In this document: positions 12,670 through 64,000 of the stretch, piece by piece
Position numbering within the stretch: position 1 is the first letter of the stretch
How the letters are laid out: each line of letters starts with the position of its first letter
Source: Raja brachyura
Taxonomy: Eukaryota
Assembly: GCA_963514005.1 (NCBI GenBank)
Contig: OY740783.1
Span: 56,048,001-56,112,000, forward strand
DNA: 64,000 bases
Direction of reading: 5' to 3'
Translations under genes and position numbers: made by a program
Notes under the pieces: model-generated
What the model was told of the DNA's origin: nothing
The model's input: the letters and a program-made list of their open reading frames with translations, nothing else
The model's database searches: none

Positions 12670-14010
12670 ATCAAAAACTGCTGCAGGTGCTGGAAAATCT
12701 CCTCCGGTCAGGTAGCATCTACTGAAAGAGAAACTGAATAATGTTTAGGGTTGAAGACTCCATCACTGAAGTTGTAATTACTTGTAATTTCCATGTCTCA
12801 TTCCTAAACCGTGGCTTTGACCTTTGACTGCATTTCATCTATTTCCTGTATCTCTTTGTCACCATATTTCCACCCCAAAAACAGCGCAGGGATATAGTTT
12901 CCATGGACTTCACGTTTGGTTCCTTCTAGTCTTTACATTCAATGTTTCATGATTTCCATCACCTTCAATGTTATTTCAACCGCAAGGTGTATCTTTCCCC
13001 TACCTTATTTAGAATAAGAATAAGTTTATTGGCTAAGTATTCGCATACAAGGAATTTGCCTTGGTGCTCCACCTGCAAGCGACAACATGACATAGTGTCA
13101 GTTAAAACTGACACATAAAACATTAAATATTAATAATGAAACATTAATAGTTTAAATATGTGAATTAAAGAAAATGCCAGAGCAAAAGGAGGCTACAGAT
13201 TTTTGGTTATTGATTAGAGCTACTTCTCGTGGGGAAAAAAGCAATTTTTATGTCTGGCTGTGGCAGCTTTGACAGTCCGGAGTCGCCTTTGAGAGGGAAG
13301 TGATTCAAAGAGTTTGTGGCCAGTGTGAGAGGGGACAGATGATCTTACCCGCTCACTTCCTAGCCCTTGCAGTGTACAGTTCGTCAATGGAGGGAAGGTT
13401 GCAGCCAATAACCTTCTCAGCTGATCGGACGATTTGCTGCAGTCTTCGGATGTCCTGCCTGGTGGCTCAGTATTCCACAGAGATCTTTACTTTCATGACT
13501 CTCTTATCTGCTCTTCCATTTACACCAACCACTTCCCATCCTACAGCCCTTTACCATGCAGCTGGAGGAATGTGGCATTTGTCCTTTTACCTTTTTGTTT
13601 TCTGCCATTCTTGCAAGTTCATCTAGCGAACTGCATTCATTGCTCACTTCCACTTTGGAGAAAATGACTGCAGATTGGGTGTCTGCTTTGTGGAGCACCC
13701 AAGTTTAGTTTGTCACGTGTACCAAGGTACAATGAAAAAGCTTTTGTTGCGTGCTATCCAGCCGGCAGAAAGACAATACATGATTACAATTGAGCCATTC
13801 ACAATGTTCCAAGTTCATGAATCCTAGCTCATTTGCAGGGGTATTCCTGAGTTTTCAGTCATTTTAATTTACTATCCCACTCCCCCTTTGACCTATGTGG
13901 GCTTCTGCATTGTTTTAACAAGGCTCAATGCAATCTTCAGGAACAGGATCTCTTCCTCTCTCTCAGTGCTTTGTAGCCTTTCAATGCTCTACCAATTCCA
14001 GAATGTCCGG
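12670..14010 (+). mobile_element. Degraded Penelope-like element interrupted by a Rex1-type 3' fragment
   Basis: Penelope-like linker and endonuclease-derived sequence at 12860-13010, resuming at 13470 (ttccacagaga), with an inverted terminal unit at about 12675-12770. Confidence 0.6.
13011..13468 (-). mobile_element. Rex1/Babar-type LINE 3' end
   Basis: The minus-strand frame reads SHTGHKLFESLPSQRRLRTVKAATARHKNCFFP. The UTR is shared with 54355-54615. Confidence 0.8.
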
Positions 14011-14504
14011 CATCTTGTACTCTGGTATCAGAATTGGCCATTTCATCTATAGGTCATCCATCTACCATACTAGCTCAATATTTCTCATTCCTTCAGTTTA
14101 GCAGTTTGAGACTTTAATTGTTCATGCTCTCAATGCCCTTGGTTAACTTACCAACTTCAAATATAACCTCTTCACAGCTGTCCCAGACTTCTTCCCTATT
14201 TCTTGTACATCCCTACCCCACTCTTCAACAAAACAAATTTGTGTTTACTCGCAAAAAAAAGACAGTTTGAGTAACTCAGTGGGTCAGGCAGCATCTCTGT
14301 AGAATATGGATAGATGACGTTTCTTTCATTTGAAATGTTAACTGTTTTGCTTTCCACTTTTCTTTCAATGGGTATCATTTGACCTGCTGAGTGTTTGTAG
14401 TACTTGTTTTTGTTTCAGATTTCCACCCTCTGCAGTCATTTAAAAAATTTGAATAATATTATCCAAATTATAATATATCAGCAGAATTAACTCTACTGGC
14501 TAAA

Positions 14505-16249: not shown

Positions 16250-17215
16250 TAGAAACACAGAACTGCAGATGGTGGCTTATACCAAATTTAGATACAAAGT
16301 GCTGGGAACCCTCCTTCAGACTGAAAATGTAAGTGTGTGTTTGGTGAGGAAAGACCAGGACCAATCGGAACAAATTACTTTAGGCAGAGCAGTGCCTCGT
16401 AGGACCATTGTTCAATAGAGAACATGTGATCTCAAGAAACAATATGGAGAACTGTGGAACTGGTAAAATGGCTAGGGAGGGGAGAGAATATGGGTTGAGG
16501 TTATGGGCCAGTCCCACTTACGCAACTTTTTCGGCGACTGCCGGCAGCCGTTATTACATGTTGGGGGAGTGTCGCCTGTATGATCATGAGTAGTCTCCTC
16601 AGTTACCCAAAGAGTTGTAGTGTCTTTCTGGTTGCCACTGGGATTTTCAACATGTTGAAAATTTTCAGCGACCTACAACAACCTGTGAAGGGTGCTGGCA
16701 GTCGCCGAAAAAGTCACGTAAGATCAACAGACCGATTACTTAAAATTTGAGAATTCAATGTTCATGCTGCTGATTTGTAAGCTGCCCAAGTGAAATATGA
16801 GGTGCTGTTCCTCCCATTTGCATTCTGGCTTCACTCTGGCAATGTCGGAGGCCCAGGACAGAAAGGTCAGTATGGGAATGGGAGTTGAAATGGTCGGCAA
16901 CCAGACGATCCCGTAGGCCTAGGCGGACCGAGCGCAAGTTCAGGAACACCAGAAGCAGTAGATGAGCTTGGAGGTGGTACGTGTGAACCTCTGTCTAACC
17001 TGAAAGGACTGTTGGGGCCCCTGAATGGAATGGAGGTATAAGGGTTGCAACATCTCCTCTGGTTGCAGGGGAAACTACCTGGGAAGTCGATGGTAGGGGT
17101 GGCAATAGACGAGTCAACCAAGGAGTTGCGGAGGGAGTGGATCCTGCAGAAGGTGGAAAAGGGTGGAGATGGGGAAATGCATTTAGTGGTGAGTTACTCC
17201 AGCACTTTGTGTCTA
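16250..17215 (-). mobile_element. Neptune-type Penelope fragment split by a Harbinger MITE
   Basis: Minus-strand frames give FPCNQRRC (zinc linker) and VADHFNSHSHTDLSVLGLRHCQSEAR (C-terminal to GIY-YIG). The UTR and terminal unit lie at 16250-16500. Confidence 0.8.
16504..16735. mobile_element. PIF/Harbinger-type MITE
   Basis: Left end TGGGCCAGTCCCACTTACGCAACTTTTTCGGCGACTGCC. The right end GGCAGTCGCCGAAAAAGTCACGTAAG is its near-perfect reverse complement. TTA is duplicated at 16501-16503 and 16736-16738. Confidence 0.85.
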
Positions 17216-18019: not shown

Positions 18020-19035
18020 GTGGCTATCTGGACTACACTTCTTCCCACCCTGCTTCCTGTTAGGACTATCCCCTACTCCCAGTGCCTCCATCTATGCCCC
18101 ACTGCACCTAGGATGAGATGTTCCAAACCAGGGCATCGGAGATGTCCTCATTCTTTATTGAACGGGGGTTCCCCTCTTCTACTATAAATGATGCTCTCAC
18201 CAGGGCCTCCTCTATATCCTGCAGCTCCACTCTCACTCCCCATCCCCCTACTTGTAACAAAGACAGTCCCCCTTGTCCTCATCTTCCACCCTACCAGCTG
18301 TCGCATACAACATACAATCCTCCAGCATTTTCATTACCTCCAACAGGATCCCAGCACTGGCCACATCTTCCCATCTCCTCCCCTTTCTGCTTTCCACAGA
18401 GACTGTTCCCTCCGGAACTCCCTGGTCAATTTGTCCCTTCCCACCCAAACCACCTCCTCCCCTGGTACATTCCCTTGCAACCGCAGGGAATGCTACACTT
18501 GTTGCTTTACCTCCCCCCTCGACTCCATCCAAGGACCCAGGAAGTCTTTCCAGGTGAGGCAGAGGCACCTACTCCAACCTCATCTATTGCATCCGCTGTT
18601 CCAAGTGTCAACTGCTGTACATCGGTGAGACCAAGCGCAGGCTTGGCGATCACTTCACCCAACACCTCCACTCGGTTCGCAATAACAAACCTGATTTCTC
18701 AGTGGCTCAGCACTTCAACTCTCCTTCCCATTCCGAATCCGACCTTTCTGTCCTGGGCATACTCCATGGCCAGAGTGAGTCCCACCACAAATTGGAGGAA
18801 CAGCTTGGGTAGTTTACACCCCAGCGGTATGAACATTGACCTCCAATTTCAGGTAGTCCTTGCTCTCTGCTTCCTTCCCCTCCCCAGCTGTCCCACAGCC
18901 TTCTGTCTCCGCCTCTTCCTTTCTTTTACCGTGCCCCCACATCAGTCTGAAGCAGGGTTTCGACCTGAAACGTCGCCTATTCCTTCGCTCAATAAATGCT
19001 GCCTCACCCGCTGAGTTTCTCCAGCTTTTTCATCT
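18020..19035 (+). mobile_element. Neptune-type Penelope-like element, 3' ~1 kb (RT C-terminus, Zn linker, GIY-YIG endonuclease), frameshifted
   Basis: Motifs YLDYTSSHPASC, SEMSSFFIERGFP, FPCNRRECYTC and LIYCIRCSKCQLLYIGETKRRLGDHF across shifting frames, then the terminal unit at 18945-19030. Confidence 0.92.
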
Positions 19036-19059
19036 ACCTTGGGTATATGTTTGGGTATA

Positions 19060-19280
19060 TTCAGCGTGTGAGGCAGCATCTATGGAGAGAAGGAATAGGC
19101 AAAGTTTCGGGTCAAGATCCTTCTTCAGACTGATGTGGGGGGGGGCAGGAAAAAGTAAAGAAGAGGCGGAGACAGTGTGACTAGAAGCAGAACTGGGAAG
19201 GAGAGGAGGGAGAAGGTGAGGGCTATCTAAAATTAGAGAAGTCAATGTTGATATTGCTGGGGTGTAGACTACCCAAGCTT
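19060..19280 (-). mobile_element. Second Penelope 3' end, inverted relative to 18800-19020
   Basis: Its reverse complement aligns along its length with 18802-19015 (gcttgggtagt.tacaccccagc...cacatcagtctgaag...gctgcctcac.cgctga). Confidence 0.88.
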
Positions 19281-19299
19281 GTCTCCTCACTACATTTAC

Positions 19300-20200
19300 T
19301 GCTGGCTCCAGTAGCAAATCTGAGTTTGAATGATCGGTGCAAGGCATTGATTGATGCTGCAATTCCACTGTGGAAATTGGAAAACAAATCAGAGGTTTTT
19401 TAGATAAATACACAGAGGAACATATTGTTGTGCAGAAAATTAGAGATGAAGTTGCCTGCAACAAAATATGGATCTCAATCGATGAGACAACCGATGCTGT
19501 GGGGAGATGTGTTGCCAATGTTATGACCGGCATACTGGAGGCAGGTCAACCATCAAAGGAATATTTGTTGACATTGGAAGTATTGGAGAAGTCAAACAGC
19601 TCAACTATTGCTCAGTTGTTTATATCTTCACTTGCTGTACTTTGGACAGAAGGGATAAAACATGAGAATGTTCTTCTGTTTGTGACTTAAAGTTTTATTC
19701 CCCAAAATGTTGCCCAAATTATTCCCCAATTTGACATGCTTAGCTCCAGGACTTTATAGAATTGCCAAGCACATACGTAGCTTGTTTTCAAATGTCGATC
19801 GCCTAGTTTCTGCTGTCTAGAAAAACTTCCTCAAAGCACCGTCACGTGTGAAGTTGTTGGAGATAGCTGTTCAAGGAGATTCCACTACCTCCGCCCGTTT
19901 TGACTAGGTGGGGTTCATGATTCTCTGCTGTGCTCTACTATGTTGCAAATTTTGAAAAGATAAAATAAATTGGGATTGTCAGTGAAATCATGCAGAAAAA
20001 GTCCCTCCACTGCGATCTTGTGTTTATCGCTTCCAATTTTGCAAACTTCCCACAAGCTATCACTTCCCTTGAGAAATGTGGTGAAACATTAGTGAATAAA
20101 TTGCAGGTTTTCAACAAAGTAACTGACGATATTTGCAAACTTCCTGGCGATGTAGGTAAAGACATCCAAGGAAAATATGAGAGTGATTTTAGCTAACAAA
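19300..20200 (+). pseudogene. Decayed hAT-superfamily transposase (CGGBP-like / DUF659-type)
   Basis: Motifs in order across stops and frameshifts: D.CKALIDAAIPLWKLEN, GFLDKYT, IWISIDETTD, LLFVT, LTCLA.GL.RIA, FLKAPSRV, PVLTRWGS*, DLVFIASNF...ITSLE. Confidence 0.8.
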
Positions 20201-20760
20201 GAATAGGATCCATTTACACGGAATTAGCACAACTTCTGATGGTGGAGGTTTTTATTTCTTGCAGTTTATATTTTGGTGTTGGATATGTGTACTACTTAAT
20301 TCATGTATTAACCTGTCGCCCAACACAAACGGGCCCTTTGGACCAACTTGGCCGTGCTGACCAAGCTGCACCATCTACGCTAGTCTCACCTGCCTGCATT
20401 TGACCCATATCCCTCTAAACTTATGCTATCCATGTAAGTGTCCAAATGTCTTTGAAATGTTTAGGACTGAAGGTTTGGTAAAGCTAGGCAGAAACAAACA
20501 TTTATGTGTAGCCGTGCTGCTACACATTACCAAGTTTTGAGTAAGGGTGATGAACGTTAAGGTGTTTAAAGCTGCTGTTAGATGACGCCTGGAGGGAGCA
20601 AACGGGGAATAGCGAAGCTATTGGATGGAATAAGCATGGTGGGAATGGAGAAGTAGTTTCATCTCTTTAAAGCTTGAACCTGATGTTGTGTGGTATGTAC
20701 TTGACATGAAGTTTATGACCCTATATAACAAATATAAATGCAATTATGACAGTAACTAAA

Positions 20761-20945
20761 AGCTGGAGTAACTGCGGGTCAGACAGCGTCTCTGGAGAAA
20801 AGGAATAGGTGACATTTTGGGTCGAGACCGTTCTTCACACTTCTGAAGAAGGGTCTCTATCCGAAATGTAACCTATTCCTTTTCTCCAGAGATACTCTCC
20901 GACCTGCTGTTTGTGTCTATCTTCAGTTTAAACCAGAACCTGTGG
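20761..20945. repeat. Palindromic pair of Penelope terminal units with hammerhead-like core
   Basis: Arms tctggagaaaaggaataggt.acattt.gg..gagacc.ttcttca and tgaagaagggtctc.atccgaaatgt.acctattccttttctccaga, centred near 20840. Confidence 0.85.
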
Positions 20946-21594
20946 TTCCTTCTTACATGTTTAGAGGGATTTGGCCAATCACAGGCAGGCGAGACTAATG
21001 TAGATGGGGCATGTGGGCAAGTTGGGCCAAAGGGCCTGCTTTCACACTGTATGTCTCTGACACTGACTTTGTATGCATTGGTTTTATAGAATACAATGTT
21101 GTGAAATGTTCATTGCTGAAACTGAACTACTCTTGACTCTGGATGTAGTGTAACATGCATATATTGACTGGCAGGAAGTCTACAGGCTGTGTCTCTAAAG
21201 CAGTTCAAGCCAGCAAATTAATTTATCAAACTCCCCGGTACTCTAATGTGGTCAAAGCTACAGCGGTTGCTGCTCTGGACGATTACACACATTTCCTTCA
21301 GCAAGTCAATCGTACTTATGCAAATATTTGGAACGTTTTCAGTATTCTAAGACGTACTTGTTTAGATATACTGGCTACTTTGTTCGTGGAAAAAGGTTGT
21401 GTCGTAATCAAATCTTTATTGCTTCTGTTCATAGAAAATGGATTTGCCCCTAACCGTTGGCTCCATTTACTGCCTTTTTCACACCGGAACCCAGGTCCTG
21501 AGTTGAAAGTCAGTACTCTGCAGCTGCTGAAAATCTGCAATTTAAAAACATCTGACTAGACAGCATCTGTGTGGAAAGAAATAGAGTCGGGGTC

Positions 21595-24249: not shown

Positions 24250-25148
24250 TATATACTTATTAAAACTCTGATCTTGTTAGTGTGTGTGTATATATGGTTG
24301 TCTTTACATCTTCACGAAAAAACTATGCGGTAACGATAACATTTTTACATATTCCGGTTGACATTTTTCCCGTCGAGGCCGGGATCACCTTATCTGAAGA
24401 TTTCATGCTTTATTTCTCAACTTATTACTGATTAAAGTTTAAAAACATCAAAAGACTTTTAAATTAAAAACAACAGCTTCAAATGATGTCACAATGGCTC
24501 GGCAAGCAGAGACCAGCATGAATGAAGATTTCATCCTATATTTGACACATACGCGATTTAAAAAGGCACTAGATTTTTACATATTCTGATTCACATTTTT
24601 ACCCTTGAGGCTCAGATCACTTTCACTGAACATTTATGCTTTATGTCTCAACTTATTACTGATTAAAGTTTTTTTTAAATCAAGCCTCAATGAGGATTTC
24701 ATTCTATATTTGACACGTTATTCATGATCAAAGTTTTTAAAATGCCAACTTTTACAAAATGATTACATATTCTGATTCACATTTTTCCCATCTAGGCAGA
24801 GAGTACTTTCACTAAACACTTTATGCTTTATTTCTCGCTGATTAATGACCTTGAATTTCAAACCGACCAGCTTCAAATGATGAAGTCTTTGAATTTTAGA
24901 CCGACCAGCAACAAATGGTGTCACAATAGCTCGACTAGAAGGGGGAGGGCAAATTGCTATAGCAACATGCAGGGCAAGTGGAAATGGATTTTTTTTTTTT
25001 AAGATCACTGCTGAGGAGGGCAAGGAGAGTGTTGGAATCTTATGTTCGGGGACGGTTTGAGTTGGAGGACCACGCCTCCCGTGAGGGCTACGGGTAGGGA
25101 ACGGGTGCGTTCGGGGAGCAGACCCAACGGGTCTTCAGTTGGTCTTGT
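24250..25148 (+). mobile_element. Putative non-autonomous Helitron with internal tandem repeats
   Basis: AT-rich 5' end (tatacttattaaaactct) and three ~190-230 bp related units. Subterminal hairpin AGACCC-aac-GGGTCT (25120-25134) is followed by CTTGT, one mismatch from the CTAG/T terminus. Confidence 0.6.
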
Positions 25149-25850
25149 GCTATTTAAAAATGGTGATGCCTCAATATCTAGGTGGTTTACTTTTTTTAAG
25201 GATGGCTAATTTAAACAGTAGGATTAATATTAGGTCAGTTTATGGATGTCACTAATGAACCATTACACCAATGAACCATGCACCCCATCTCACCAAAACT
25301 TCCATGTTTAAATGTATACATTTTATTTCAGATGTTTATCAGAATTCCTCCATTATATTGGCATGCATTAACTACTAATATTATTAATGTGAATTATCTG
25401 GTTTCTACTTGTCAGTATGATTAGGGATTCAGAATGTTAGGATCTTCAGAGACCTATTTGACACCAAATTGATCAACTTTTTTTTAAAACATAGGCACCA
25501 TTTTTTTAAGATTGTATTTTCTGACTTGTCAAGACATTTTCATGTGGAGTGCCACTGACAAATTTCAGGCAGAGAACTAGTTAGTGAGTTAAGAATTCTT
25601 GAATTTGCACGCAAGTGTTGAATTTGTATAAAAGACTGATGTAGAACTGCTGCCTTTTCCTGGGAATATCCAGTGGTTAATTTTCTGTCCAAGCATTTGT
25701 CTGTTATATATTAAGAAGCAAGATGTGTCCAAAAGGGAAAATGGAAAAAGAGGATGTCGCTAGGATGAGATGACATGGGTGGAGCAGAAACACCGGCACA
25801 GAACAGTAGTGATGTACACTGGAAGTTCTACACATTTATCCTTGGGGTGG

Positions 25851-25945
25851 TAGACACAAAATGCTGGAGTAACTCAGGGGACCAGGCAGCATCTCTGGAG
25901 AGAAGGAATGGGTGACGTTTCAAGTCGAGGCCCTTCTTCAGACCC
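25851..25945 (-). ncRNA. Penelope terminal unit with a minimal type I hammerhead-ribozyme-like motif (25910-25945)
   Basis: The minus strand reads GGGT-CTGAAGA-A-GGGCCTCGACTT-GAAAC-GTC-ACCC: conserved CUGANGA and GAAA core, GUC triplet, GGGU/ACCC stem I, weak stem II. Activity is not shown. Confidence 0.6.
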
Positions 25946-26249
25946 TTTTATCCTGGGAAGTTCTTTGCTGTGAATTCTGTGCATAAAAATTGGTCAGTCC
26001 AGCAGATAAAGTGCCAAAGAGCAATCAAATATTTTCTTTAAGATGAAGTCATTCCTGCCTTAGGAAAATAAGATAATCTGAGTTGGGTCCGTCCAAAATA
26101 TCATGTTTAACCTTGGGTAGCAGTAAATGCATCTTTGAAGAAATTATAGCCAATGGATGAAAACCACATTTGGTTGAAATAGTAATCTGTTTTTCAATTT
26201 TTATCTTTTACAGCAAATGGCACTCTAGAAAGTCATATTTACACCTGCT

Positions 26250-28954: not shown

Positions 28955-29572
28955 GGTTCACTTGCGCCTCCTCCAACCTCATCTACTGTACTGTTGTTCA
29001 AGATGTGGACTGTTATACATCGGCAAGACCAAACGTAGACTGGGCAATCATTTCGTTGAACACCTTTGCTCAGTCCGCCTGGACCTACCTGATCTTCTGG
29101 TTACCAAATGCTTTAATTCCCATTCCCACTCTGACCTTTCTGTCCTAGTCCACCTCCGTTGTCAGAGTGAGTCTAAACGCAAATTGGAGGAACAGCATCT
29201 TATATTTCGCTTGGGCAGTTTACAGCCTAGTGGTATGAGAATTGATTTATTTAACTTCAAGTAACCCCTGCAGGCCCTCTCTCGCCATCCCTCCCCCACG
29301 CAAGTTATACCAGCTTCAAAGTTGTCTTGAGTCTCATTGTCTGTACACGTTCTCACCTAACATGCGTCTAACGATGGCCTGGTTCCTTTCATCTTTACTT
29401 TTTTTGCATATTTTCATTCATTTGCTTGGTCTCTGTACGTTGTCTATATCTCTTGTTTCTCTGTCCCCTGACTCTGAGTATGGAGAAGGGTCATGACCCG
29501 AAATGTCACCTATTCCTTTTCTCCAGAGATGTTGTCGGACCCGTTGAATCACTCCCGCATTTTTGTGTCTAT
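28955..29572 (+). mobile_element. Penelope-like element 3' fragment (GIY-YIG domain plus terminal unit)
   Basis: YCCSRCGLLYIGKTKRRLGNHFVEHL...RKLEEQHLIFRLGSLQPSGM, then the terminal unit at 29480-29572. Confidence 0.92.
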
Positions 29573-33620: not shown

Positions 33621-34279
33621 TGGCGATATGCTACGAGTACTGCCCTGCTGACTACAAAATTCAGAAGGATTGACATTCCCATTCTCAGTCCTGCTGAAAT
33701 AGACAGGACTTCCAAATTGGTTGGCTCTGTTCTTTGGAAGGTCCTTGACGGCATAAGCGCCAGAATGTCAGTTTGCTTAAAAATCTCCAGTTTATAAACT
33801 GCATGATCATCTTGTTCTCTTCCAGCCAAAGTCATCTATTTTTAGTATGTGCTACCATGTTTCAGCTAGTCATTTTGAAACCAGTTTTGAGCCTAAGGGC
33901 ATTGTGAAAGGGTTTGAATTCATTATAAGCTCAGCTGCTAACCTGGCACCACCAATTCTAAACTTTGTATCCACGCAAACCAATAAAGACCATCTTAAGC
34001 TTGAGTTACTGTCATCTGTTCACCGTGGGAGAATTATGAGAGGAATTAATTTGTATTTGAGAGGCAGCTGTCAAATAGTGTCAGTTATTATTGATTGTCT
34101 GCTATAACCGAGTATTGCATTATCATTGTATATAATTGAAATAAGGAACTGCAGATGGTTAATATTCAAAAGAACACAAGTAACTCAGCGGATCAGGGAA
34201 CATCTTTGGAGAACATGGATAGGTAACGTTGAACCATTCAGTCAGCTGAGTTACTCCAGCACTTTGTGTCTTTTCACCT

Positions 34280-37453: not shown

Positions 37454-37652
37454 TGAAACAAGAAACTGCAAATGCTGGTTTACAAAAAATGGCGCTGGCG
37501 TGACTCGCTGGGTTGGGCAGCATCTCTGGAAAACATGGATAGATGGCCTTTAGAATCAGTCTAATGAAGGGTCCCAACCTGAAACATCACCTATCCATAT
37601 TCTCCAGAGATGCTGCCTGACCTGTTGAGATACTCCTGCACTTTGTCTTTTT
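37454..37652. repeat. Palindromic pair of Penelope terminal units
   Basis: Arms ggcagcatctctggaaaacatggatag and ctatccatattctccagagatgctgcc. Confidence 0.85.
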
Positions 37653-38450
37653 TAAATGGTAAATGTTGATGGTTTCTGCCTCAACTCAATGGTAGTGCTG
37701 AGCTCCATTTATATTCTATTCACCATGTTTTCTGTGTATCATAACTCTCACAATGGGAAGTACTGCTAAGAAATCTTCCAAAAATAAGTCAGTGCAGGAT
37801 GGAATGATTAGAATATAAAAATATACAAAAAAATGGGTTAGTTGTGTTTTGCTCTATTGAAAAAAACATAGACAACATAGGCTGCTCCATCTAATCCTTT
37901 GGCACACCTCTACACTTATAAAATGCAGGACATAGGAAATGAGCATGAATTGAAGAAATTAGCCATTCCATTCTTTTCATTGCAATTATCCAACTGCAAG
38001 TATTCGGTTTGTACTCCTGGTACCTTCAGGATCTTAGGCACATCCCATTATGTTAACAAATTACTTGTCCGACAATGACATGTTGATGAAAATAGCCCGT
38101 TGACCAGTCATTAGTGTAAAGAGAAAAGGTGTAAGAGGGAAGCTTGAGCGTGTAATTTTCCACATGACCAATGCACAAAGTTGCAAACTGAAAGCATTTT
38201 AACATGTCTCCTGTTCAGTTTCCTATATTCAAACTTTTTTCTTGCTGCTTTTATGTTTCTATTAAATTGCTGTTTTTCACTTATTTATCGATAATGATAC
38301 CGGCTGCTGAAATATGTTAACTAAAGATGTTTGGAAGCCTTCCAGTATTTTCAATGATCTTGGAAATAATTCTGTGAATCAAACAGTTGGCATGATTCGG
38401 AGCTCAATAGGTTATGCAAGGAGGATGGAGAGGGTGATATTAAAAAATAT

Positions 38451-38545
38451 CTGACGACGGGTCTCAACCCGAAATGTCGCCTATTCCTTTTCTTCAGAGA
38501 TGCTGTCTGACCCGCTGAGTTACTCCAGCATTTTGTGTCTATCTT
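38451..38545 (+). ncRNA. Penelope terminal unit with hammerhead-like core (38451-38478), sense to the PCSK5 intron
   Basis: CTGACGA-C-GGGT-ctca-ACCC-GAAA-T-GTC, followed by the family tail gagatgctgtctgacccgctgagttactccagc. Stem I is poorly formed. Confidence 0.5.
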
Positions 38546-41240: not shown

Positions 41241-43419
41241 GATCAATCTGAAACGTCACCTATCTGATTTCCCCAGAGATGCCACCTGACCCAGAATTAT
41301 TCCAGCACGTTGTATTTTAAAAAATACAGCATTTGCACTTCTTTGTGCCTACATTACATTTATTGTTTGTTTTCTGTTCGATAGACATTCTTCAAATTCT
41401 ATTTGATTCTTCATGGCTATACAACTACAGCCAATTGTTTAATTTGGATAGTGGTCAGTTATTGGATGGTGTAATATTAAACTATGCAATGTGCATTTGT
41501 GAAAATAGAAGAAAAATAACAAAGACCCTGGTGGTGTTGTGTGAGGGTGTCTAGCAAAATTCTAAATGTTTAACTAGCTGGAGCAGCTTTAGATTTGCTG
41601 CGACTTCCAGCAGCTGCATAGTAATTGAGGGTTTTGAGCTGGCAGCTTTGATGTACTCTATGGCTGGCCTTGTTCTTCAATTAAAGGCCTGTGACTTGGT
41701 CTCCTGCTTACAACATTTTGCTTGTGCCTAGTTATACACTGAGGGGATAAGAAAATAAGGCCAGGGTACCAAGCAACAAGTTAAGAAAATAAATTTGTCA
41801 AAACATCTGCACTAGCAAAATATTTATCACTTAAGTTTGTCATTTGCTTTCAGCAACTTAGCTGCAAGGGAGAGCATCACACTCTTGCCTTTCTCTAATC
41901 CTCAGGAATAAGAAGGGCTTGACCTTGTTTACTGTAAGTGTATTTCCTTGTAAATTAAGTGATTAAGTAACAACAGTTGTAGCCAGCTAATGCAGTTTCT
42001 CACTGCAGAAGATATGTTTCTTGGCCATTTCATGTTGGCTTTGGAGAAAAATAAATGAAGGAATTTTACACACAGATGCAGAACAGTTGCCCAGTGCAGT
42101 TTGTTCCGCATAAGCTTCTACTCGCATGTTATCCTTCAGATTGCTTTCTAATACAAGTTGTTCCCAGGTTACAGCAGGATTCCATTCCTGAGAATGGTTT
42201 ATAACTCGGAACAGTCCATGCAGCTGCAGCAAAGTTCCCACCTGACAGAAGGTGCCACCAGCCCTGTGGCAGACGGCAAATCCATACCACCAGCCTCACT
42301 CGTATTTACATAGGTCGACTCTTCATATTCTGGGGAGTCCTTTAGTTTAGTTCAGCTTATTGTCACATGCACTAAAGCTTTTCACTATACGTGAATAAAA
42401 TAAACTAGGGAGCCTATATATGTTCCTTTCCAGATTTCTTTGAGTACAATTCTTGAATTTAATCTCTGAATATATTAGTGATAATCTTGTCCAAAGAGCA
42501 TCTCTCCAGCCTTTCTATTCGCAGGCTTATGAAATGTCTTTAATCTCCATATCTGGTTGCTTCAATGTCCCTCCATGTTACAAGATGGTGGCAGTGACCA
42601 ATGATTGAAACAAACTAGAAAATTATTTGCTTTGGTTTGGTTTTGGTCATTTTGGTTATGTTTTTGCATAAATGTCCTAAAAGACATTTAGCAATAGATT
42701 GATGTTCAAAAAGCAGTTTTAAATTGAAATATTGTCATTTTGTGTGGGTTTTATTCAAGAGAGGGCGAGATCTGCATAGTAAATATTTAAGTTTTGTTAA
42801 TCATCACATATTGAATATTAATATTGGAGACTCAAATGTTTCAAATATGTTTCAGATCAGTGACATTTTTATTGATACATAGCTATTTTGTCTTAAAGCT
42901 GAGATCTTCTGGTGGAGGAGAGTGCATGTACTGACATGACAATTGGGCAATGTGTAACTTAGTGAAAATCCCAAAAATGTAAGTGCTAGAAAACTGAAAT
43001 GAAAACAGAATTCTAGAAATAGTCAGCCGAGAGACTGCATTTGTGGAGGGGGGGGGAATATATTATTGCTAAATGACTCTTTTACTTTCCTCCTTGGAAT
43101 GTAGTAAAAGGATTTGGAAACCAAAGTTGAGCAGAGACCTTCAATTAAATTTAAAAAAAATCAGGTTGGCAAAGCTTTGTTTCTTAGGCTGCCTTTAGGA
43201 TAGATGTGATTTTATTGGATCTGAAAGTAATTGGAACAATCTGCTTTTAAAAAAATAAAGCAGCCTATATCTAGATTGACAAAGGAAATTTGACAATTAC
43301 AAGTTCCTCTTTAAGTTAGTGGTTTTAATGTTTTTTTTAAATATTCGGTTTTATACAAATTCTAATCCAGTGTTTGCAGACATCTATTCTTGATATTTTT
43401 CTGCATTGCTTTATCACAT

Positions 43420-48107: not shown

Positions 48108-51100
48108 GAAACATAGAAACATAGGAAATAGGTGCAGGAGTAGGCCATTCGGCCCTTCGAGCCTGCACCGCCATTCAATATGATAATGGCTGATCATCCA
48201 ACCCTGATCCCTCTAGCCACAAGGGCCACATCTAACTCCCTCTTAAATATAGCCAATGAACTGGCCTCAACTACCTTCTGTGGCAGAGAATTCCACACTC
48301 ACCACTCTCTATGTGGAAAAAAGATCTTCTCATCTCAGTCATAAAAGACTTCCCCCTTATCCTTCAACTGTGACCCCTTGTTCTGGAGTTCACCAACATC
48401 GGGAACAATCTTCCTGCATCTAGCCTGTCCAACCCCTTAAGAATTTTGTAAGCCTCTATAAGATCCCCCCTCAATCTCCTAAATTCCAGCGAGTACAATC
48501 TGAGTCTATCCAGTCTTTCTTCATATGGAAGTCCTGCCATCCCAGGAATCAGTCTGGTGAACCTTCGCTGTACTCCCTCTATGGCAAGAACGTCTTTCCT
48601 CAGATTTGGAGACCAAAACTGTACGCAATACTCCAGGTGTGGCCTCACCAAGACCCTGTACAACTGCAGTAGAATCTCCCTGCCCTTGTACTCAAATCCT
48701 TTTGCTATGAATGCCAACATACCATTCGCTTTCTTCACAGCCTGCTGCACCTGCACGCCTACTTTCAATGACTGGTGTACCATGACACCCAGGTCTCGTT
48801 GCATCTCCCCTTTTCCTAATCTGCCACCATTCAGATAATAATCTACCCTCCTGTATTTGCCGCCAAAGTGGATAACCTCACATTTATCCACATTATACTG
48901 CATCTGCCATGCATTTGTCCACTCACCCAACCTATCCAAGTCACCTTGCAGCCTCCTAGCATCCTCCACACAGCTAACACTGCTCCCCAGCTTCGTGTCA
49001 TCCGCAAACTTGGAGATGTTGCATTCAATTCCCTCATCCAGATCATTAATATATATTGTAAATAGCTGGGGTCCCAGCACTGAGCTTTGCGGTACCACAC
49101 TAGTCACTGCCTGCCATTCTGAAAAGGACCCGTTTACTCCTACTCTTTGCTTCTTTTATGCCGGCCAGTTCTCTATCCACATCAATACTGAACCCCCAAT
49201 ACCGTGTCCTTTAAGTTTGTATGCTAATCTCTTATGTGGGACCTCGTCGAAAGCCTTCTGAAAGTCCAGATATAACATATCCACAGGTTCTCCCTTATCC
49301 ACTCTACTGGTTACATCCTCAAAAAATTCTATAAGATTCGTCAGACATGATTTACCTTTCATAAATCCATGCTGACTTTGTCCAATGATTTCACCGCTTT
49401 CCAAATGTGCTGCTATCCCATCTTTAATAACTGACTCTAGCATTTTCCCCACAACCGATTGGTCTAATTCCCCGTTTTCTCTCTCCCTCCCTTTTTAAAA
49501 AGTGGGGTTACATTAGCTCCCTCCAATCCTCAGGAACAGAATCTAAAGAGTTTTGAAAAATTATCACTAATGCATCCACTATTTCTGGGGCTACTTCCTT
49601 AAGTACTCTGGGATGCAGCCTATCTGGCCCTGCGGATTTTTCAGCCTTTAATCCATTCAATTTACCTAACACTACTTCCCGGCTAACGTGGATTTCACTC
49701 AGTTCCTCCATCTCCTTTGACCCCCGGTCCCCTGCTATTTCCGGCAGATTATTTATGTCTTCCTTTGTGAAGACTAAAGTAGATATTCAATTGGTCTGCC
49801 GTGTCCTTGTTCCCCATGATCAATTCACCAGTTTATGACTGCAAGGGACCTACATTTGTTTTAACTAACCTTTTTCTCTTCACCTATAAAAACTTTTGCA
49901 GTCAGTTTTTATGTTCCGTGCCAGTTTTCTTTCATAATCTATTTTCCTTTTCCTAATTAAGCACTTTGTTCTCCTCTGCTGGACTGAATTTCTCCCAGTC
50001 CTCTGGTAGGCTGCTTTTTCTGGCTAGTTTGTATGCTTCATCTTTAGTTTTGATACTATCCCCGATTTCCCTTGTTATCCACAGATGAACTACCTTCCCT
50101 GATTTATTATTTTGCCAAACTGGGATGAACAATTGTTGTAGTTCATCCATGCAGTCTTTAAATGCCTTCCATTGCATATCCACCATCAACCCTTTAAGAA
50201 TCACTTGCCAGTCTATCTTGGCAAATTTGCGTCTCATACCCTCAAAGTTACCTTTGTTTAAGTTCTGAACCCTTGTTTCTGAATTAACAATGTCACACTC
50301 CATCCTAATGAAGAACTCAACCATATTATGGTCACTCTTGCCCAAGGGGCCGCGCACAACAAGACTGCTAACTAACCCTTCCTCATTACTCAGTACCCAG
50401 TCTGGAATAGCCTGCTCTCTCGTTGGTTCCTCTACATGTTGGTTCAGAAAACTATCCCGCATACATTCCAAGAAATCCTCTTCCTCAGCACCCCTGCCAA
50501 TTTGATTCACTCAATCTATATGTAGATTGAAGTCGCCCATTATAACTGTTTTACCCTTGTTGCACGCATTTATAATTTCCTGTTTGATGCCATCCCCAAC
50601 TCCACTACTACTGTTTGGTGGCCTGTACACAACTCCCACTAGAGTTTTCTGCCCCTTAGTGTTTCGCAGCTCTACCCATATCGATTCCACACCCTCCAAG
50701 CTAATGTCCTTCCTTTCTATTGCGTTAATCTCCTCTCTAACCAGCAACGCTACTCCACCTCCTTTTCCTTTCTCTCTATCCCTCCTGAATATTGACTATT
50801 CCTGGATGTTCAGCTCCCAGCATTGGTCACCCTGGAGCCATGTCTCCGTGATCCCAACTATAATCATATTCATTAATAACTATCTGCACATTCAACTCAT
50901 CCACCTTATTACGAATGCTCCTTGCATTGAGACACAAAGCCTTCAGGCTTGTTTTTTTACAAAACTCTTACCTCTTACACAATTATGTTGAAAAGTGGCC
51001 CTTCTTGATTTTTGCCCTGGATTTTTCAGCCTGCCACTTTTCACCTTGCTACCTATTTCTTCTACCCTCATTTTACATCCCTCTGTCTCTCTGCTCATGC

Positions 51101-55704: not shown

Positions 55705-55920
55705 GAAAGAAGAACTGCAGATGCTGGTTTATATAAAAGTGCTGTTTAAATACACAGTGCTGGAATAACTCTGGTCAGGCAACATCTCTGGAGAACATGG
55801 ATTGGTGATGTTTCGGTTTAGACCCTTCAATCTGAAGAAGGGTCCTGAGCCGAAGCAACACCTATCCATATTCTCCAGAAATGCTGACTTATCCGCTGAG
55901 TTACTCCAGCATGCTGTCCT
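55705..55920. repeat. Palindromic pair of Penelope terminal units
   Basis: Arms tctggagaacatggattggtg.tgtttcgg and ccgaagcaacacctatccatattctccaga, centred at cttcaa|tctgaag (about 55830). Confidence 0.85.
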
Positions 55921-61334: not shown

Positions 61335-61630
61335 AAAGTGCTGGAGTAACTCAGCAGGTCAGTTCGCAACTCAGGAGAATGTTTTGGGTAGGAAGCAGCC
61401 TTCGGAATGATTCTAGTAGGGGGCAGAAAGCTGGAAAAGAAGTGGGAGCAGGACAAAGCCTGGCAAGTGATGGGTAGATACTATTGAGAGTGGGGGGGGT
61501 TTGATGGGCAAGTGGATTGACAAAGGTCGAATGAAAAGGAGACAAAGACTAAGGAGAAAAGATATATGAATTGTGGGGCCAGAGGAAGAGATGTAGGGAA
61601 CAAGATTGCAGCATCCACAGTTCCATGTCT
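61335..61630 (-). mobile_element. Penelope-like 3' UTR and terminal unit
   Basis: aaagtgctggagtaactcagcaggtcag followed by a purine-rich UTR, mirroring 8950-9220. Confidence 0.7.
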
Positions 61631-62829
61631 TCAACTTAGCATTGCTGCCCACAAGTCTGTCAGTTCATAGCTGGGGGGCAACAATAACTCTTGCTTTTCT
61701 GCACTGCAAGTAATTCTCTTTATTAAATGCAAGACCGTTGTGCATTGGGGAAGTACTGATGACAGCATTTTTTCCCATGCAGTTGCTGGCAAAACACTTT
61801 GAAACCTGCTGCTTTTTCTTGCAGATTTAGTTGTTGGCAGAGCAAATTTTATTTGAGGCCAAGAAACAATTGTGAGTTTAATAATCCACCATTGGAGCAT
61901 TTTCAAAATGCTGACTGGTCACATCTGGCGAGGTGCGAAGGTTGGCTCATTTGGCACAGTACATTCTGTGTTTATGATAATCTGGAGAAAAAAGTACCAA
62001 CATTTGTTTAATTGACAAGGCATATGAATGTTTTACAAAGCAATGAAACATGAGGCTTGCAGGAATGTCACCTATTCCTTTCCTCCAGAGATGCTGCCTG
62101 ACCTGCTGTTACTCCAGCATTTTGCAGCTTGTTATCTGCCCATTAACCTCAGTGACATTTTATTATGGCCGTCCATCAGCTAGCCCTGACCGGATGGGGG
62201 AAGTGACAAGCCTTCAACAAATGCTCAAATTTAGTTTACTTTTGTTTGGTTTGTCATCACGTGTACCAAAGTACGGTAAAAATGTTTTTGTTCTGTCTGT
62301 ATGGAGACACAACAAAAACCTGTGTACTAACCAGTCAATGGAAAGACTACATGATTACAATCGAGTCATCCATGGTGTACAGATATATGATAAAGGGAAT
62401 AACATTTAGCACAAGATAAAGTCGAATCAAAGATAGTCCAAGGGTCTCATGTGAGGCAGATGGTAGCTCAGAGCCTCAACACCCAATAGAAGTTTGATTA
62501 GTAGGACACATTTAAAAGCTGTCCTGTGATTGTGTTTCTTGTGCAACCTACTCTGGCCCCTGAGGTTTGCTTCGCCAGCTATATTCTTATCTGAAAGAAA
62601 ACACAAAAGGGAAAATTGCAGTAAATGAAGCACTTTTTTCCCCATCACCTTTGTGAATACACTGTTCGATGTTAAATGGGTCTTTGGGGAGGCTCAAAGA
62701 ATTAACAAACGTGAGACTGCGCAAACATTTTTTTTATCACTTATTGTGTGATCAAATGAAGAATTTGCAGTTTTGTCATGTTCGTCCTTTGTGTATTGGA
62801 ATTGTTCGTCCTTTGTGTATTGGAAGTGA

Positions 62830-64000
62830 GTCAGAGGGGGAAAACAGTTGAAAACTGAGGAATTTGGTTTGTAAATTAGGCAATTGAACAGTCAATATAA
62901 GCAAGGCAGCTCTTGGGGAGCGGCCTTGTGAGGGAAGTGCCCTGTGAGTAAAGTGTGAGTCTTTGGCTCGAGAGTCTTCGGAGAGGAGGCTGCGCAAAAC
63001 ACTGGATAGGGAGAGACGGAGGCAAAAGAAGATGTCAAGCAAGCTGATGCAGTGTGATGCTTGCAGTATGTGGGAGGTCAAGGACACTGCTGGTGCCTCT
63101 GGATGCTACAAATGTGAGAAGTGCATCCAGGTACAGCTCCTGAAGGATCGTGTTGGGGAACTGGAGAAACAAGTGGATGACCTCGGGTTCATCCGAGAAA
63201 CTGAGTCGTTCCTCGACAAGTCCTTCAGTAAGATTGTTACACCCAAGGCACTAGAAGAGAAAAGGTGGGTGACGGTGAGAAAGGGAGGAAAACATGGAAT
63301 GCAAAGGTCCCCGGGTGTTGTACCTCTTGTGAACAGGTTCACCCACGTGGAAGCTGCCGGGACAGAAGACGGTATCTCACTGAGCGGCGGACTGGCTTGC
63401 AAAACAAAAAGGGCTGATGAGCCAAAACCAAAGAGGCCAAAGTCGGGCAACGCCATTGTAGTTGGAGACTCCATTGTGAGAGGTACGGACAGGGGTTTTT
63501 GCGGCAACAGACGGGATTCCAGGATGGTGTGCTGCCTTCCTGGTGCCAGGATCCAGGATGTTACGGACAGAGTGCAGACAATCCTCAAGGGCGAAGGTGA
63601 ACAGCCGGAAGTGGTCGTGCATGTTGGCACAAATGATGTTGGAAAGAAGGGGATGAATATTTTGCAGCGGGACTTCAGAGAGCTTGGAAAAATGCTGAAA
63701 AGCAGGACTTCCAGGGTTGTTATCTCCGGTTTGCTTCCAGTTCCTCGTGCTGGCGAGAGCAGGAACAGGGAGATACGGGACCTGAATGTGTGGCTGAGGA
63801 ACTGGTGCAGGGGGCAGGGATTTAGATTCTTAGATCACTGGGATCTGTTTTGGAGTAAGGGGGAACTGTACAAAAGGGACGGATTGCATCTTAACAGGTG
63901 GGGGACCAGCATTCTGGCCGGCAGGTTTGCCACTGCTACACGGATGGTTTTAAACTGAATAATTGGGGTGGGGTGTCAAATGGGATAATCGAGAACGGAG
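62830..64000 (+). mobile_element. 5' end of a CR1-clade LINE (5' UTR plus intact ORF1), running off the window
   Basis: GC shift near 62900, an open ORF1, and homology to the ORF1 remnant at 51152-51480. The left boundary is approximate. Confidence 0.88.
63032..63958 (+). CDS. CR1 ORF1 protein: C4 zinc finger, leucine zipper and SGNH/GDSL esterase domain (308 aa from the first ATG)
   Basis: CDAC-x16-CEKC, heptad-like LLKDRVGELEKQVDDL, and SGNH blocks GDS, PGA, GTND, DGLH, with no stops. Confidence 0.9.
   Translation: MSSKLMQCDACSMWEVKDTAGASGCYKCEKCIQVQLLKDRVGELEKQVDDLGFIRETESFLDKSFSKIVTPKALEEKRWVTVRKGGKHGMQRSPGVVPLVNRFTHVEAAGTEDGISLSGGLACKTKRADEPKPKRPKSGNAIVVGDSIVRGTDRGFCGNRRDSRMVCCLPGARIQDVTDRVQTILKGEGEQPEVVVHVGTNDVGKKGMNILQRDFRELGKMLKSRTSRVVISGLLPVPRAGESRNREIRDLNVWLRNWCRGQGFRFLDHWDLFWSKGELYKRDGLHLNRWGTSILAGRFATATRMVLN

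Follow-up and report, generated by a model that had tools for sequence, protein, structure and literature searches.

The short units that recur throughout this 64,000-nucleotide stretch of Raja brachyura DNA (the window) are almost certainly 3' pseudo-LTRs of Penelope-like elements, in which at least five subfamilies of Neptune type can be told apart; each unit comprises a minimal hammerhead plus 95 or 127 nt. A wider reading, which we consider probable, is that these pseudo-LTR ends were inserted one by one and that the 5' edge they share is likely where the element's RNA begins. Both the motif and the element that carries it are already known; what we add is the scale and the regularity. Our literature search, which did not extend to repeat databases and supplements, found nothing on this family in skates, rays or sharks and nothing on a fixed 5' edge; the word 'penelope' does not occur in a shark-and-ray genome preprint. 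Throughout, position 0 is the C of CUGA, and cleavage is predicted between +27 and +28.

Pseudo-LTRs of Penelope-like elements

What is the unit a part of? Walking upstream from it in the same genome, we reached a reverse transcriptase (RT), an N-terminal region and finally partial tandems: there a truncated copy bearing this unit continues, by way of the tail, into the next copy's 5' part. Because these tandems place the unit before the element's 5' part, the unit is a pseudo-LTR. Five subfamilies, A to E, have the core in common and differ in upstream sequence. GIY-YIG sequence lies upstream in long copies of every one (A 40/43, B 4/7, C 3/12, D 6/8, E 5/6). An open frame of 593 amino acids in a long subfamily E copy stops about 230 nt before the unit and matches RVT_1 (E 8.5e-6) and GIY-YIG (E 7.3e-4), in neither case at gathering level; a PDB sequence search with this frame gave no matches.

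The order of RT and C-terminal GIY-YIG in one natural frame is that of EN+ Penelope-like elements, and a CX4CX2C linker precedes the nuclease. Neptune and Nematis are marked by such a Cys-rich, Zn-finger-like linker, placed between RT and EN (PMC8557442). Judged by the linker and by elimination (only Neptune and Poseidon have been found in vertebrates), the elements appear to be of Neptune type. The Neptune-type partner named in an earlier note on this DNA is thus supported by long copies with RT, Cys linker and GIY-YIG. The same three features characterize the EN+ Neptune-type elements of Craig et al. 2021 (PMC8557442) and Arkhipova et al. 2013 (PMC3846280). The insertions described there also share heavy 5' truncation, partial tandems, an inverted head-to-head copy with a palindromic junction, a one-sided tail of 30-40 bp and occasional target duplications; here too the Penelope-like layout of partial tandem pseudo-LTR, inverted copy and one-sided tail is present.

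Subfamily E is young, with a median identity of 98.8% to its own profile and long copies that are 97-99% alike. It may still be active. Two young subfamily E copies in the genome sample described below (L262:2-1783 and L277:2-1783) have open frames of at least 593 amino acids that run off the sampled stretch.

The consensus pattern proposed in the earlier note matches 7 times in the window, against 0 in 100 shuffles, and an iterated profile matches 24 times. The profile covers every position listed in that note except 16260, an internally deleted copy, which brings the total to 25 and bears out the claim of about 15 or more recurrences. The length given there, about 100-150 bp, is corrected to about 98 or 130 bp, with two fixed 3' ends.

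Several copies in the window are long. A 5'-truncated coding copy of subfamily A (18021..19040, plus strand) consists of the Cys linker, a GIY-YIG piece (18558-18812, plus strand; PF01541, E 2.7e-4, below gathering) and a pyrimidine-rich 3' UTR, followed by the unit at 18944. A second subfamily A copy (19059..19290, minus strand) reaches about 155 nt upstream of the core, and a subfamily B copy (28965..29570, plus strand) shows GIY-YIG similarity (tblastn E 7e-24) upstream of its unit at 29477. Three old copies extend upstream by about 75 nt (3945..4029, plus strand), 244 nt (9141..9221, plus strand) and 200 nt (61335..61407, minus strand, core damaged).

The remaining copies are short. Four head-to-head pairs are present: one of subfamily B (20759..20960), with starts at -3 and -1 and a tail on the plus arm only, and three of subfamily C (37492..37660, 55756..55913 and, consisting of core-less fragments, 34179..34265). 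Solo stubs lie on the minus strand at 1691..1794 (start -3, internal insertion), 6234..6315 (start +1) and 7025..7102 (10-bp target duplication) and on the plus strand at 38450..38545 (start -1, subfamily B). Others are worn or incomplete: 12686..12755 (minus strand, worn, start +13), 14266..14323 (minus strand, start +21, without CUGA and stem II), 41243..41310 (plus strand, without CUGA), 62063..62122 (plus strand, start +22) and a core-less fragment at 9609..9644 (plus strand). The copy that the profile missed, at 16250..16325 (minus strand), has its head joined to the tail region.

The window also holds other repeats. A 336-aa frame at 62948-63958 (plus strand) carries a GDSL esterase domain (PF13472, E 1.2e-12); it is probably the first ORF of a CR1/L2-type LINE. 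An RVT_1 fragment (E 8.5e-10) lies at 48364-49155 (minus strand), and the repeats around it presumably represent CR1-type LINE 3' ends, of which there seem to be several families in the window. A weak DUF659 match (E 0.003, below gathering) at 19355-19690 (plus strand) adjoins the Penelope copies and is perhaps a DNA-transposon relic. At 24338-24836 an 81-nt repeat, unrelated to the Penelope unit, occurs three times at a spacing of 186-232 nt.

To what extent has the unit spread? In a genome sample of 139 evenly spaced 10-kb stretches from large contigs (1.39 Mb), we found 545 matches, with none in a reversed-sequence control; 16 stretches had none. Scaled from this large-contig sample, the genome is estimated to hold 1.06 million copies (bootstrap 0.92-1.21 million). 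At about 100-130 bp each, they would make up roughly 4-5% of the 2.7-Gb genome. After 36 matches were dropped (unalignable, duplicate or at an edge), 509 copies were analysed.

A hammerhead outline, mostly decayed

All five subfamily profiles contain the catalytic boxes, an extra base before stem II, a palindromic 15.2-16.2 and the NUH triplet. The earlier note's assignment of a Penelope terminus with a minimal type I hammerhead, in which a palindromic ACGU replaces helix III, is therefore upheld. The minimal hammerheads (min-HHR) of metazoan Penelope-like elements described by Cervera and De la Pena (2014, PMC4209133) have the same CUGANGA and GAAA, the same extra base between 9 and 10.1, the same G10.1-C11.1 and the same palindromic 15.2-16.2 without loop 3. 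There too, motifs are mostly single, ascribed to truncated elements, with some opposite-strand pairs. Numbers differ: 4,000-9,000 min-HHR motifs in coelacanth and Xenopus, against about 1 million units here, an estimated tenth to an eighth of them with an intact core. The available text of PMC4209133 contains no breakpoint map and no cartilaginous fish.

Stem I departs from the published descriptor, which has 4-5 bp in helix I. The four bases before the core read CAGT in 93 of 334 sampled copies and GGGT in 10, and -3 and +30 form a standard pair in 6% of 243 copies, so that the family's stem I has 2 bp. The core is intact in 62 of the 279 copies that span it; 46 of these have a stem I of at least 2 bp and 6 one of 4 bp. 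Stem II is the same in all subfamilies, and its changes are mostly one-sided (U-A to U-G in 21/407, G-C to A-U in 8/385). The covariation among subfamilies that the earlier note had looked to as a check thus could not be shown, as stem II is identical among them; no compensatory changes separate the subfamilies.

Rfam gave no gathering-level match in the window; at E<=10 on a young pair it returned no hammerhead family, and what did come up were hairpins of microRNA models, matched by chance. Five copies were folded singly; none took a hammerhead fold, and one of the five had a z below -2. Core identity (0.950, against 0.932 downstream) was rejected as a sign of selection after insertion, the difference being too small and confounded by alignment anchoring.

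The copy singled out in the earlier note illustrates these points. It is a solo pseudo-LTR stub of subfamily D (25850..25943, minus strand), with its 5' end at -2, the proximal 3' end and no tail. By direct reading against the PMC4209133 descriptor, its minimal hammerhead motif occupies 25910..25945 on the minus strand, in the order GGGU, CUGAAGA (25941-25935), an extra A, stem II (25933-25922), GAAA (25921-25918), CGUC (25917-25914) and ACCC, with predicted cleavage between 25914 and 25913. Stem II, GGGC/ACUU, has two G-U pairs and one C-A and is therefore decayed. The copy folds no better than shuffles (z 0.19).

Imperfect repeats enclose this copy: 11 bp on the 5' side (25947..25957) and 12 bp, one base longer, on the 3' side (25835..25846), both read directly on the minus strand and likely a target-site duplication. 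Between the 5' repeat and the templated start lie three extra junction bases (25944..25946, minus strand), much as at other junctions bounded by target duplications; they may be a re-copy of the element's own +6..+12, which they match. Since these bases supply the outer G pair of its 4-bp stem I, that stem is a junction product. The earlier description of this minus-strand copy was thus right about CUGAAGA, GAAA, GUC and the presence of GGGU/ACCC, and wrong in so far as GGGU/ACCC is not the family's stem I.

Could the units be an independent, non-autonomous family, retrozyme or SINE-like, processed by the ribozyme into its own unit-length or circular RNA and moved by the Neptune protein? Such a family would fit with units that are so numerous, end so regularly and have target duplications of their own, and some stubs may carry a transcription start themselves. 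An origin of retrozymes from pseudo-LTRs has been reported, one chondrichthyan genome included (bioRxiv 2026.07.22.740005). Non-LTR animal retrozymes (Li et al. 2026, bioRxiv 10.64898/2026.07.22.740005; PMC7229834) are likewise non-coding, with a type I hammerhead and pseudo-LTR relatives. By definition, however, they form tandem repeats in which every unit has a complete ribozyme (bioRxiv 10.64898/2026.07.22.740005), whereas the copies here are dispersed solos or inverted pairs: 32/509 have a same-strand neighbour within 300 nt, about 29 being expected from density by a hand estimate. Nor are the ends set by the cleavage site; 21/509 copies start at +27..+31, and the 3' ends lie at about +94 and +127. 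Lacking both tandem arrays and cleavage-set ends, the unit is not a retrozyme. The few intact cores, the six 4-bp stems and the absence of compensatory changes also stand against an independent family, as does the finding that every short subfamily has long coding copies. Such a family, the first of two explanations in the earlier note, is largely refuted, and we think it very unlikely: all five subfamilies have long GIY-YIG copies, tandems are at chance and the whole core was copied.

The only arrays found, in 3 of the 139 sampled stretches, are of a 66-bp minisatellite, present in 2.5-7.8 copies with 86-99% matches, that corresponds to about +20..+85 in the pseudo-LTR of subfamily C. Its four loci (L043:7640-8156, L046:9347-9514, L216:6777-6974 and L274:3005-3334) have the same junction. 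Without CUGA and stem II, it is not a retrozyme.

The 5' edge in front of the core

Where do the copies begin? The interval -5..-1 holds the first base of 138 of the 509 copies, 0..+4 that of 59 and -10..-6 that of 29; stops occur at a rate of 0.135 per nt within -5..-1 and of 0.006-0.017 outside -10..+4. A plot of 5' breakpoints, suggested earlier as the way to tell random truncation from its opposite, is thus non-random, with 215/509 starts at -7..+4, just 5' of the CUGA core. The second explanation in the earlier note, stereotyped truncation at the ribozyme, holds in that ends pile up; the point at which they do so is the core's front edge, about 30 nt 5' of the cleavage site. Flanks are 47% pyrimidine in 135 piled-up copies and 82% in 34 long copies (79-locus subset), so the edge is real and not an unmodelled subfamily. 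It is found in 57 of 145 copies with a tail and 143 of 335 without. Because it is the same in both, it is set by position, not length, and a length limit of the enzyme was rejected as its cause. A step in read depth at the edge was not counted, as it arises partly from subfamilies with other upstream sequence. Neither this fixed edge nor the counts of tail exclusion in pairs given below are described in the available text of PMC8557442 and PMC3846280.

Two features of the junctions suit a template end. Re-copied head sequence precedes 20/159 piled-up solos, against 25/477 control windows (p 0.004), and an extra G stands before 23 of the 46 starts at -3 (12.8 expected, p 0.001), with no excess before starts at +2..+60 (59/207, 60.6 expected). 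An extra G is what a cap would leave at a template end, and the sequence at the edge, TCAGT, resembles the initiator consensus. A first, smaller G test was not significant (5/12, 6/11 and 9/19; p 0.22, 0.057 and 0.055). The excess is absent in the youngest solos (0/6 at -3; 5/13 at -2, 3.9 expected), and at -2 starts two confounders come in, A>G decay and microhomology with the partner arm.

The edge is not sharp: retention drops from +2 to -6. Of 26 short solos whose AGTCTG is intact, 14 retain the templated base at -4 and 17 that at -5; with about half keeping them, one start base at -3 cannot account for every copy. A comparison with D. virilis also counts against a transcript start at the edge: there 46 nt and a 75-nt intron separate the start site from helix I, which lies downstream (PMC2377424, PMC4209133).

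A pause of the reverse transcriptase where the core meets the pyrimidine tract, or closure by annealing of the near-palindrome TCAG-N-CTGA, would be another source of the edge. A stall could come from bound protein or structure. The ragged edge, about 8 nt wide, falls on the near-palindrome (-5..+3), and it is exactly through this sequence that young pairs are joined; a tract of 82-90% pyrimidine lies just upstream in all five subfamilies, and 77/509 copies read through by more than 30 nt. Yet the share of stops is similar for all five upstream sequences, different as these are, the pile-up is seen in solos as well as pairs, and the G excess and re-copied heads suit a template end. We regard a pause or closure as the less probable origin, though one to be taken seriously; run-off from the RNA's end is in our estimate about three times as likely as a pause.

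Did the ribozyme cut the templates? Most copies hold the whole core, which means that their template RNAs were not cut at GUC. Solos that start at the cleavage site show a weak excess (13, 6.2 expected; p 0.011, post hoc), so that some templates may be cut.

Reads of run X24, from another organism, lose their match to the element at the same bases as the copies here, -2 (815 reads) and -3 (885 reads), and have unrelated flanks. This polyA run, of which about 6% was sampled, has near-equal strands over the unit and no pile-up of molecule ends and is uninformative on start, cleavage and circles. At L139:1700-2011 and 2132-2400, coding parts have 2-5x more first mates on one strand, the unit being near equal; under the usual stranded protocol this bias would represent antisense RNA.

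Two 3' ends and head-to-head pairs

The 3' side has two fixed ends, at about +94 and +127. Among solos from all loci analysed, target duplications of at least 10 bp flank 27/333, against 6/997 shuffled, and 8/26 in subfamily E; they begin at +89..97 (16) or +124..134 (11), and around stubs they measure 10-15 bp. One stub (L187:1233-1319) has a 20-bp target duplication in which 7 bases are identical to the element's head, a microhomology at the 5' junction.

A head-to-head partner accompanies 202 of the 509 copies. The pair tests used 119 head-to-head pairs, likewise from all loci analysed and not from the 509-copy sample alone. Both arms belong to the same subfamily in 93/101 typed pairs (25% expected), and a single duplication surrounds the whole pair in 22/95, against 0/469 shuffled. 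Tails exclude each other: among 108 pairs, 79 have one, 28 none and 1 two, where 15.2 two-tailed pairs are expected (p 1.5e-6). The arms share non-consensus bases at 46 of 4,783 sites (0.0096, against 0.0047 in shuffled arms), which could mean one RNA per pair or finer subfamilies. One-sided tails and palindromic inverted junctions are known in Penelope-like insertions (PMC3846280, PMC8557442).

Stubs could be solo repeats left by recombination between pseudo-LTRs, as solo pLTRs in Adineta are ascribed to recombination or deletion (PMC3846280), but recombination gives neither head-to-head pairs under one duplication nor re-copied heads. They could instead come from splicing at the YAG in front of the core, where every subfamily has a pyrimidine tract followed by CAG; the D. 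virilis intron ends at helix I (PMC4209133). Conservation, however, is steady across -1/-2, and the flanks of 107 piled-up solos share no common exon, so the splice product was rejected. In 23/27 cases, moreover, the duplication and the 5' end are no more than 4 nt apart or overlap, which counts against either process. Together we give the two hardly any weight.

A related system offers a parallel. The protein of PAc, a Poseidon element of Anolis and so of another clade (Frangieh et al. 2024, PMC11167929), nicks both strands in vitro and starts reverse transcription at two sites on uncut RNA, downstream of the hammerhead. The two 3' ends and optional tail seen here match the two internal start sites and optional tail reported there; in PAc, too, the two 3' ends lie downstream of the hammerhead and about 30 nt from each other, the RNA template is uncut and both strands are primed, with no RNA-seq ends at the cleavage site. 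It differs in that the in vitro start site is equal on both strands, whereas pairs here are almost never two-tailed, and in that its transcript start is not tied to the hammerhead.

How might these observations be combined? We propose that the transcript starts a few bases before the core, at the initiator-like TCAGT. Most events would copy only 95-130 nt and then run off the RNA's 5' end, and longer copies would come from read-through RNA or a template jump. Where both nicked strands are primed, one per start site, the product would be a head-to-head pair with one tail. The hammerhead outline is inherited, mostly decayed, and was left uncut in the RNAs behind most copies; for cleavage in an active element, a partner RNA or protein would be required. 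In full, the proposal is that the stubs, about a million of them, are integrated 'strong-stop' cDNAs, the Neptune RNA starting at the hammerhead's front and a dimeric complex priming both strands at different sites so that one tail results. We advance this specific version tentatively, as falling somewhat short of an even chance.

With its high copy number and a young subfamily (98-99% identical, with long open frames), this family is a natural data set for Penelope transposition. The steps it addresses, namely RNA start, ribozyme cutting of the template and the origin of inverted copies and one-sided tails, are called not yet validated in PMC11167929. If the strong-stop proposal is true, the genome would record both the transcript start and the strand assignment of the Penelope integration reaction.
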